A DNA stretch of 15,799 nucleotides from contig CAYHAA010000028.1 in the NCBI GenBank assembly GCA_964354495.1, positions 1-15,799 on the forward strand, read 5' to 3'. Source of the stretch: an uncultured archaeon. Lineage in GTDB: Archaea > Asgardarchaeota > Thorarchaeia > Thorarchaeales > Thorarchaeaceae. A program made the position numbers and the translations under genes. This document shows, one piece after another, positions 201 through 12,293 of this stretch. Below the pieces are notes generated by a model, which saw only the letters and a list, made by a program, of their open reading frames with translations, was not told the DNA's origin and made no database searches. Within the stretch, counting starts at the first letter, position 1. Each line of letters begins with the position of its first letter.

Positions 201-224
201 GTGCGCCTGCCGGGACTCGAACCC
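201..224 (-). repeat. att-like duplicate of the tRNA-Gly 3' end (T-arm to acceptor stem)
   Basis: gtgcgcctgccgggactcgaaccc at 201-224 is identical to 817-840, inside the tRNA gene; 26/27 identity if extended to 227/843. Confidence 0.88.
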
Positions 225-231
225 CGGAGAA

Positions 232-729
232 TCATTCCATCAACTCATGGATTCTGCTTCTATGGGGCCAAAGGAGCACAAGGGAGCAAGTGATTTGATG
301 CACAAGAAGTGGGCGCATCTGATACGTGTAAAACTCCTCCACTCTAAGAATGTTGATACCCGGAGTCAGTACAAGAAGGAACGCGCTTAACACTATAATC
401 AGAAGTCCCTTTCGAAAACTGATTCTATTGGTTAGAACTAGCCATGATATGATCGGTGACAGGGTCCCAATTATCGATACTAGAAGTGTGACTGGACTAA
501 TGTAAGGAAACAACAACTCAAAAGTATCCCATTGTGGAGCCAGATATGTCGGCCTGTTCCACTCAATGGCCCAGCAAGTGCCTACGAATCTTGTTTGAAT
601 GAACACTGTGTCAAGAATCGTGTGTTCTCCTGCACCGAAGGTCTCTGATTCCAGAGTAGTTGGAGATAGAATGGTAATAAGGAATAGAACTAGAACTACT
701 CCTCTATGCAGTTTTTCATTACCTCCCAT
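232..729 (-). CDS. Hypothetical integral membrane protein (about 4 hydrophobic segments), cargo of the mini-islet
   Basis: 165-aa ORF with ATG start; hydrophobic stretches VVLVLFLITIL, LLFPYISPVTLLVSIIGTLSPIISWLVL, GLLIIVLSAFLLVLTP and LLVHQITCSLVLLW. Fills most of the space between the repeats. Confidence 0.75.
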   Translation of the reverse strand: MGGNEKLHRGVVLVLFLITILSPTTLESETFGAGEHTILDTVFIQTRFVGTCWAIEWNRPTYLAPQWDTFELLFPYISPVTLLVSIIGTLSPIISWLVLTNRISFRKGLLIIVLSAFLLVLTPGINILRVEEFYTYQMRPLLVHQITCSLVLLWPHRSRIHELME

Positions 730-814: not shown

Positions 815-919
815 TGGTGCGCCTGCCGGGACTCGAACCCGGGCCGGATCCGTGGCAGGGATCCATCATAGCCCCGTCGCCGAGGTCGCAGAAACTGAGA
901 CCTCATAGACAACAGGCGC
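815..919 (-). tRNA. tRNA-Gly(GCC), CCA encoded, with a 30-nt intron at 876-905 (tRNA position about 14/15)
   Basis: Minus strand: acceptor GCGCCTG/CAGGCGC, anticodon stem GATCC/GGATC with loop CT-GCC-AC (anticodon 854-856), T-arm CCGGG-TTCGAGT-CCCGG, then A73 and CCA. Removing 876-905 restores D-loop AGGGGCTA and a 75-nt mature tRNA. Confidence 0.93.
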
Positions 920-974
920 ATTCTTCTGACTACCCTAAAGGGAGTGCATTGGCTTGTTGACCAAAGACGCTGTG

Positions 975-987
975 TTAAAAAGTTTGC
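975..987 (-). promoter_or_regulatory. BRE/TATA promoter of tRNA-Gly
   Basis: Minus strand GCAAACTTTTTAA, 56 nt upstream of the tRNA 5' end; nearly the same as GCAACGTTTTTAA upstream of tRNA-Val. Confidence 0.65.
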
Positions 988-1036
988 CAAAGGCTCGAGT
1001 GTTGAGCATGCCTACAGGTTCACTACGTGACTGACA

Positions 1037-11979: not shown

Positions 11980-12153
11980 TGGGACGAGCGGGTATGAGCA
12001 TAAGCTCTAGCTGGCATTGAAATAGCACTATTGGGGCATCGCGAGAAGCGGCAGCACATCAGCTCTTCCGATTGAGAAAGACTCACTCCTTCTCATGTAG
12101 GAGACTCGTTAGCAGGTGTGAAATCTGCAAATTGAGATGGTCTTGGAGCTAAA

Positions 12154-12293
12154 TGGTGGGCCGGACGTGATTTGAACACGTGACCACCGCACGTTTGAAC
12201 GTGCGTGGAAGTCAAGCACTTATGTCAATGCGGTATTTTCTAACATTCCAGAATGACTCTAGTCTGTTCATAGCCGAGCTAGACCACCGGCCC
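12154..12293 (-). tRNA. tRNA-Val(GAC), CCA encoded, with two introns: 32 nt at 12237-12268 (about 23/24) and 30 nt at 12193-12222 (37/38)
   Basis: Minus strand: acceptor GGGCCGG/CCGGCCC, anticodon stem CCGCA/TGCGG with TT-GAC-A (anticodon 12224-12226), T-arm ACGTG-TTCAAAT-CACGT. Removing both inserts gives a 78-nt cloverleaf. The 37/38 intron forms a BHB with central helix TTGA/TCAA. Confidence 0.92.

Follow-up and report, generated by a model that had tools for sequence, protein, structure and literature searches.

The window analysed here spans an entire contig (15.8 kb) of a Thorarchaeota (Asgard) genome that comprises 3.30 Mb in 51 contigs and has an estimated completeness of 97.7%. Its minus strand carries a tRNA-Gly(GCC) gene that is interrupted in the D-loop (cf. 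Table 1). The Rfam tRNA model (RF00005) matched positions 919-818 with 42.7 bits (gathering score 29), a match seen only with permissive filters, and its alignment gave a D-loop of 36 nt as compared with 5 nt in the model. Default ARAGORN called no tRNA in this gene, and with introns allowed the program miscalled it as Arg(tct), the intron hairpin being forced into the anticodon arm. Deletion of the 30 nt at 905-876 left a 75-nt sequence that ARAGORN called as tRNA-Gly(gcc), with a D-stem GUCU/UGAU and a D-loop AGGGGCUA; the insert therefore breaks a tRNA gene whose canonical cloverleaf returns once it is removed, as in BHB-type tRNA introns. The molecule has an acceptor stem GCGCCUG/CAGGCGC with the pairs G1-C72, C2-G71 and G3-C70, a T-loop UUCGAGU, the discriminator A73 and an encoded CCA, while its 7-nt anticodon loop CUGCCAC, placed on a 5-bp stem, sets the anticodon as GCC (856-854). 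By hand reading of the spliced form, two further pairs are possible, G15-C48 (C48 being in the 4-nt variable loop) and U8-A14. The original prediction, made from the letters of the window, had named the same tRNA, an intron of 30 nt and a normal D-loop after its excision, and all three agree with the ARAGORN call on the spliced sequence, the anticodon loop and the intron-less orthologues described below.

Table 1. Features of the tRNA-Gly(GCC) locus in the window.
Feature	Position	Strand	Description and evidence
Whole tRNA-Gly(GCC) gene	815-919	-	105 nt, 75 nt mature including encoded CCA (817-815); Rfam RF00005, 42.7 bits; ARAGORN on spliced sequence
Exon 1, tRNA positions 1-14	906-919	-	GCGCCUGUUGUCUA; aligned to intron-less orthologues
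Intron between A14 and G15	876-905	-	30 nt; missing in 16 orthologues; homologous intron in 23 distinct 30-nt sequences; 48-nt class at the same site
Exon 2, tRNA positions 15-76	815-875	-	Starts GGGGCUAUGAUGG; aligned to intron-less orthologues; ARAGORN on spliced sequence
Anticodon GCC	854-856	-	Rfam alignment; ARAGORN on spliced sequence
Central helix H, 5' strand	908-911	-	U9 G10 U11 C12 (5' strand of the mature D-stem); C12-G in 23/23, U11-A/G in 23/23, G10-C in 22/23
Central helix H, 3' strand	878-881	-	GGCG, within the intron; covariation; RNAalifold
5' bulge, U13 A14 | U	905-907	-	Predicted cut after A14 (906); exon border between second and third bulge base (rule of PMC4307357); orthologues; RNAalifold
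Intron hairpin h'	882-904	-	GAGGUCUC (904-897), 7-nt loop (896-890), GCGACCUC (889-882); 94.6% of cells paired
3' bulge, A C | G15	875-877	-	Predicted cut after C876; closed by no outer helix; orthologues; ViennaRNA; 23-sequence analysis
Duplicate of tRNA 3' end (T-arm and acceptor strand)	201-227	-	27 nt, 26/27 identical; located 616 bp downstream of the matching segment of the gene

The 105-nt gene was then used to search 60 related genomes, and the matches were read. Sixteen complete tRNA-Gly(GCC) genes of related Thorarchaeota have no insert at 14/15 and all read GTTGTCTAGGGGCTATGATGG, i.e. the predicted spliced junction; the junction in the intron-less orthologues is GTTGTCTA|GGGGCTATG, and the spliced-junction string GTTGTCTAGGGGCTATG was present in 16/16 insert-free orthologues. 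The predicted mature junction of the window gene is GUCUA|GGGGCUAUG on the GCGCCUG acceptor. Three of the orthologues (L029, L031 and L032) are free of introns throughout, and their Rfam scores are 53-57 bits as compared with 42.7 bits for the window gene. An insert at exactly 14/15 was found in 10 genes of this search, with the window gene counted; most of them have, in addition, either a canonical intron of 33 nt or inserts amounting to 61 nt in the variable/T-arm region, and only in the window gene and in L030 is the D-loop intron the sole one. Further copies came from pattern scans of species genomes and metagenomes, bringing the totals at this site to 23 distinct 30-nt versions and four 48-nt versions. 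Public records with the same intron-bearing gene belong to Candidatus Thorarchaeota, including SMTZ1-45, OWC2 and OWC5, and a scan of viral contigs for the pattern of the intron-bearing gene gave no exact match. In relatives whose intron ends in AA, the borders 13/14 and 14/15 cannot be told apart. The window intron ends in AC, so this one-base ambiguity disappears and the junction is fixed at 14/15, the position that had been claimed for it. The 48-nt introns (L030, L077, L088 and L094) have a longer hairpin with the same 4+2-nt 3' end. The orthologue L041 (genome G021) has an insert of about 32 nt elsewhere in the D-loop (after GGGGCU, near 20/21), none at 14/15, and a canonical intron in addition. 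Five others (L028, L035, L036, L037 and L038) carry 61-62 extra nt between the variable loop and the T-loop, which by eye resemble two adjoining introns (at about 45/46-48/49 and 53/54).

All 30-nt versions share one layout: one bulge base, an 8-nt stem, a 7-nt loop, an 8-nt stem, four nucleotides pairing with U9-C12 and two bulge bases. Over the 23 distinct homologues, 89.9% of the cells are paired as compared with 76.5% in shuffles, and 48 cells are changed on both sides as compared with 12.1; neither observed value was attained in any of 500 shuffles. When the 3' partners were slid by 1-3 columns, pairing fell to 32-51%. RNAalifold independently arrived at the central helix, at the hairpin and at a 5' bulge of 3 nt, and both-side changes were found in 7/8 hairpin pairs. 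The central helix of the window copy has four pairs, two of them G-U; the U9 pair is standard in 6/23 sequences, including the window copy (U-G), and non-standard in 17/23. The helices proposed originally, U9-C12 (911-908) with GGCG (881-878) and GAGGUC with GACCUC, are thus present, but comparison with the relatives extends the intron hairpin from six to eight pairs with one U-C mismatch.

Taken together, these elements form a relaxed motif and not a strict bulge-helix-bulge. A strict hBHBh' arrangement would need an outer helix h, which these sequences lack, as well as a fourth central pair, which is non-standard in 17/23 of them. What is found is a central helix together with a single closed bulge of 3 nt and the helix of the intron, the other splice site lying four positions off on the opposite strand; since the 3' bulge is closed by no outer helix, the motif is of the relaxed HBh' type. 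An outer helix proposed by RNAalifold (exon positions 3-6 with GGGC of exon 2) was rejected, because it consists of acceptor-stem bases with one-side variation only, and no other candidate emerged, which is in line with the prediction that this helix is absent. Crenarchaeal endonucleases set the exon borders after the second base of each 3-nt bulge, a rule established by experiment (PMC4307357), and the resulting cuts UA|U and AC|G coincide with the borders set independently by the intron-less orthologues, so the bulges foreseen in the window withstood both this comparison and the covariation analysis. Furthermore, the central helix uses the strand that later enters the D-stem, and the precursor fold and the D-stem are therefore mutually exclusive, as had been anticipated when the D-stem was said to unfold.

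A second hidden tRNA lies in the window at 12153-12293 (minus strand); we read it by hand as Val(GAC) with a 30-nt canonical intron at 37/38. Its intron has a central helix UUGA/UCAA and the bulges CA|U and AC|G, and by hand reading it follows the same 1+8+7+8+4+2 layout. The gene has another insert of about 32 nt near positions 24-26, and it was neither called by ARAGORN nor matched by Rfam even at E values up to 10.

The main internal doubt concerns the fold of the window copy itself. ViennaRNA favours a register shifted by 3 nt, in which G10-C, U11-A and C12-G are formed with the last GAC of the intron; its pair probability is about 0.83 as compared with about 0.1 for the BHB register, and the constrained energies are -39.7 and -38.3 kcal/mol, respectively. 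The shifted fold contains no BHB, and most relatives are unable to form it. The 3' end of the intron is GGCGAC in the window and GACTAA in L087, a metagenome contig with nearly identical flanks. These three clustered substitutions create a second GAC, which is why ViennaRNA prefers the shifted register, and they keep or improve the pairing of the central helix, with U11-G in place of U11-A and U9-G in place of the U9-U mismatch. An independent lineage (L067, L078 and L079) shares the AC|G bulge, its intron having GGCCAC at the 3' end. We take the shifted fold to be a competing conformer rather than a sign of a dead gene.

The same observations could be read as marks of a disabled gene copy, in which the insert is kept or poorly removed through a non-BHB fold, while GGC/GGU codons are decoded by another gene outside the assembly. 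Both the preference of ViennaRNA and the clustered substitutions relative to L087 would be in keeping with such decay, and a second gene could sit in the missing 2% or so of a genome assembled in 51 contigs. However, both exons are intact and do not differ from those of orthologues that look functional, the substitutions keep or improve the central-helix pairing, the AC|G bulge is also seen in an independent lineage (with GGCCAC), and the genome yielded no other Gly(GCC) gene. Standard tools find about 31 tRNA genes in it, many of them intron-bearing, and its glycine isoacceptors besides GCC are CCC and UCC. No second tRNA-Gly(GCC) could be recovered from the genome, which is 97.7% complete, by blastn with the spliced sequence, by searches for GCC anticodon arms with a T-loop, by a looser version allowing a canonical intron or by ARAGORN with introns; another intact gene of this kind is what the original prediction had named as evidence against itself. 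A 'Gly(ccc)' candidate called by ARAGORN at C7:14246 was rejected, since hand reading identifies it as a tRNA of class II, probably Ser(GGA). In view of these data, we consider a disabled copy improbable.

Splicing at other borders, for example at 13/14 or at a junction set by the shifted register, appears more improbable still. In its favour, 13/14 and 14/15 yield the same mature sequence in the relatives with an AA-ending intron, and the shifted helix is thermodynamically preferred in the window copy. However, the bulge rule (PMC4307357) puts the cut at 14/15 in 23/23 sequences, and the shifted register is absent from most relatives. In the window copy, moreover, only 14/15 restores A14 and G15 and fits the intron-less orthologues. 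A mature tRNA that retains the 30 nt as a hairpin within a larger D-loop, though it would agree with the covariance model fitting a D-loop of 36 nt to the gene, is hardly credible, because the central helix occupies the D-stem strand and the tRNA core could not form with the insert in place, close relatives lack the insert, its borders coincide with the bulges of the splice motif, and no tRNA is known to have a D-loop of this kind.

Apart from the search for a second gene, the host genome was scanned for paralogues of the intron by blastn-short as a test of intron transposition, and only chance-level matches of ≤16 nt were obtained, the best of which (C7:77803-77818) sits in apparently coding sequence. 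Two other loci deserve mention. A tRNA-Gly 3' fragment preceded by TTCCAA, a UCC anticodon loop, lies at C27:14304-14335 of G000; the tRNA-Gly(TCC) gene (C27:7054-7128) is located about 7.2 kb upstream of it, and the fragment could be the far end of an integrated element. At C21:29257-29359 (minus strand, G000), another tRNA has a 30-nt insert in its T-loop region, so that this intron length recurs across genes.

With no outer helix and, in most relatives, a non-standard fourth central pair, the motif would depend on an enzyme of broad specificity. Asgard archaea have (alpha-beta)2 endonucleases with an L1 loop that allows cleavage of relaxed motifs (PMC5829648; PMC3239211), and the specificity loop of the crenarchaeal endonuclease and its K44 have been described (PMC5829648). 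In agreement with this, two tRNA_int_endo genes were found in the host genome, the subunits being encoded in the regions C7:64948-65196 and C6:24745-25002 of G000. The first encodes an alpha-like catalytic subunit of 188 aa that matches that of A. pernix (3P1Z_B, 1e-42), is gap-free across the Crenarchaea-specific loop, has a Lys opposite K44 and keeps the catalytic Tyr/His/Lys. The second encodes a beta-like subunit of 212 aa, whose nearest matches are the enzymes of M. kandleri and M. jannaschii and which lacks the histidine, as in a structural subunit. An RtcB ligase gene is present as well (588 bits). The host thus encodes an endonuclease predicted to be able to cut relaxed motifs, together with an RNA ligase, and the tolerant endonuclease postulated from the window has its counterpart in typed alpha and beta genes, the former with the loop and the Lys kept.

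These findings led us to conclude that 919-815 is very probably a working, and apparently the only, tRNA-Gly(GCC) gene of this genome, from which a 30-nt intron would be removed at 14/15 through a relaxed BHB. Judging from the gene, its insert and borders, the covarying structure and the enzyme genes, cleavage and ligation would be expected to proceed as follows. The gene would be transcribed as a precursor with a 105-nt body, in which U9-C12 would pair with GGCG near the 3' end of the intron in place of the D-stem partner of U9-C12. The central helix and the 8-bp intron hairpin would then build the HBh'-type motif, with the 5' splice site in the 3-nt bulge U13 A14 | U between the two helices and the 3' splice site, A C | G15, on the opposite strand at a distance of four positions, where no outer helix closes the stretch. 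The two-subunit (alpha-beta)2 endonuclease would cut after the second base of each bulge, and RtcB would join A14 to G15, after which the D-stem (G10-U25, U11-A24 and C12-G23) and the tertiary pairs U8-A14 and G15-C48 could form.

Introns in the D-arm or D-loop have been shown experimentally in tRNA-Thr of A. pernix, tRNA-Glu of S. tokodaii and tRNA-Glu of M. kandleri (20b/21, HBh') (PMC4307357; PMC5829648). In three complete Asgard genomes, 92-95% of tRNA genes are intron-bearing, often at non-canonical sites (PMC11291895), the D-arm is the commonest overlooked intron site in Asgard tRNAs (bioRxiv 10.64898/2026.10.13.758758; PMC11291895), and a 2026 preprint states that Asgard D-arm inserts are systematically missed by annotators (10.64898/2026.10.13.758758). 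An intron of this region is thus less unusual than had been thought from the window, given these crenarchaeal, M. kandleri and Asgard examples. The closest analogs are pre-tRNA-Glu(UUC) of M. kandleri (20b/21) and pre-tRNA-Thr(UGU) of A. pernix, which share with our case (i) a short protein-spliced intron in the D-loop, (ii) a relaxed motif without one closing helix and (iii) efficient removal only by an (alpha-beta)2 endonuclease with a specificity loop, the protein splicing and the last point being predicted for the window gene. Unlike them, the Thorarchaeota intron sits at the 5' edge of the D-loop (14/15), not at 20b/21 or base 22, and its host is an Asgard archaeon; its splicing is predicted, whereas theirs was demonstrated by cleavage assay or cDNA. 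Like the published Asgard D-arm inserts, the intron belongs to the class most often missed by annotators, prefers BHB-compatible borders and differs between close relatives. Those studies dealt with Atabeyarchaeia, Freyarchaeia and Jordiarchaeia, while here the family is a tRNA-Gly(GCC) of Thorarchaeia, in which a single site holds 23 covarying variants of 30 nt and a class of 48 nt. Non-canonical introns of Thermoproteales and other Crenarchaeota likewise combine a transplantable BHB, a broad-specificity heterotetrameric endonuclease and several introns per gene, as seen here in relatives (PMC4090602; PMC4033280). However, the sites given in the crenarchaeal reviews are 20/21, 22/23, 25/26 and others, 14/15 not being among them (PMC4090602; PMC4033280), and the Thorarchaeota tRNA-Gly introns are strikingly uniform at 30 nt, in contrast to the crenarchaeal ones.

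The surroundings of the gene bear on how the intron may have come and gone. The 27-nt copy of the tRNA 3' end at 201-227 supports the suggestion that the T-arm site had been used; it reads CTA where the gene has CCA. Between this copy and the gene lies a 165-aa hydrophobic ORF (232-729, minus strand) with no Pfam match, and no integrase was found in this interval. The ends of similar ORFs adjoin tRNA-Gly 3' fragments in L036 and L047. In L046 (about 1335-1375, genome G017), a stub with 86% identity to query positions 1-37, which comprises exon 1 and the greater part of a related D-loop intron, stands directly upstream of the promoter-like box of a live tRNA-Gly(GCC) that has no D-loop intron; it looks as if an intron-bearing gene had been replaced there by one without it. 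Four further loci (L034, L047, L048 and L053) have a 12-nt 5' stub upstream of the live gene (GCGCTCGTTGTC; GCGCTCGTTGTG in L053), located at the normal distance from the promoter-like box and followed by 15-16 nt and then by a complete gene with another acceptor stem (GCGTCCG). In the window (920-1000), as in L028, L081 and L087, the conserved promoter-like box AAACTTTTTAAC precedes the 5' end of the tRNA by 54 nt as compared with about 27 nt in other relatives, a spacing that points to a longer leader or a different start site. A decayed 5' stub that we suspected by eye upstream of the window gene was dropped, as MAFFT places a 26-nt extra segment after the promoter-like box.

Old tRNA-Gly stubs beside live genes in several relatives suggest that gene replacement contributes to the patchy distribution of the intron, which we regard as a lead. 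Going further, the 5' stubs, the stub with exon 1 and most of the D-loop intron, and the duplicated 3' ends are traces pointing to small cassettes with their own tRNA-Gly. That whole-gene replacement by such cassettes, and not precise gain or loss, accounts for the patchiness within one Thorarchaeota genus is nonetheless a tentative idea that we hold to be rather unlikely. If it were true, tRNA introns would travel with mobile tRNA-gene cassettes, a concrete route of arrival that was left open by the 2026 Asgard census.

As far as sequence comparison can tell, the window intron is a well-supported case of an intron type known already from Asgard archaea, and since both D-arm introns in Asgard tRNAs and the enzymology had been reported before, current understanding is unchanged. 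For this organism, it means that the only tRNA found for GGC/GGU codons is encoded by a gene that standard finders miss or miscall, and because D-loop introns hide genes from such finders, annotations of Thorarchaeota genomes look incomplete unless these introns are recognised. Furthermore, the intron-less, 30-nt and 48-nt alleles, with 23 covarying variants among them, make up a natural series at one site that could be used to test what Asgard endonucleases demand of a relaxed motif, as well as how tRNA introns are gained and lost.
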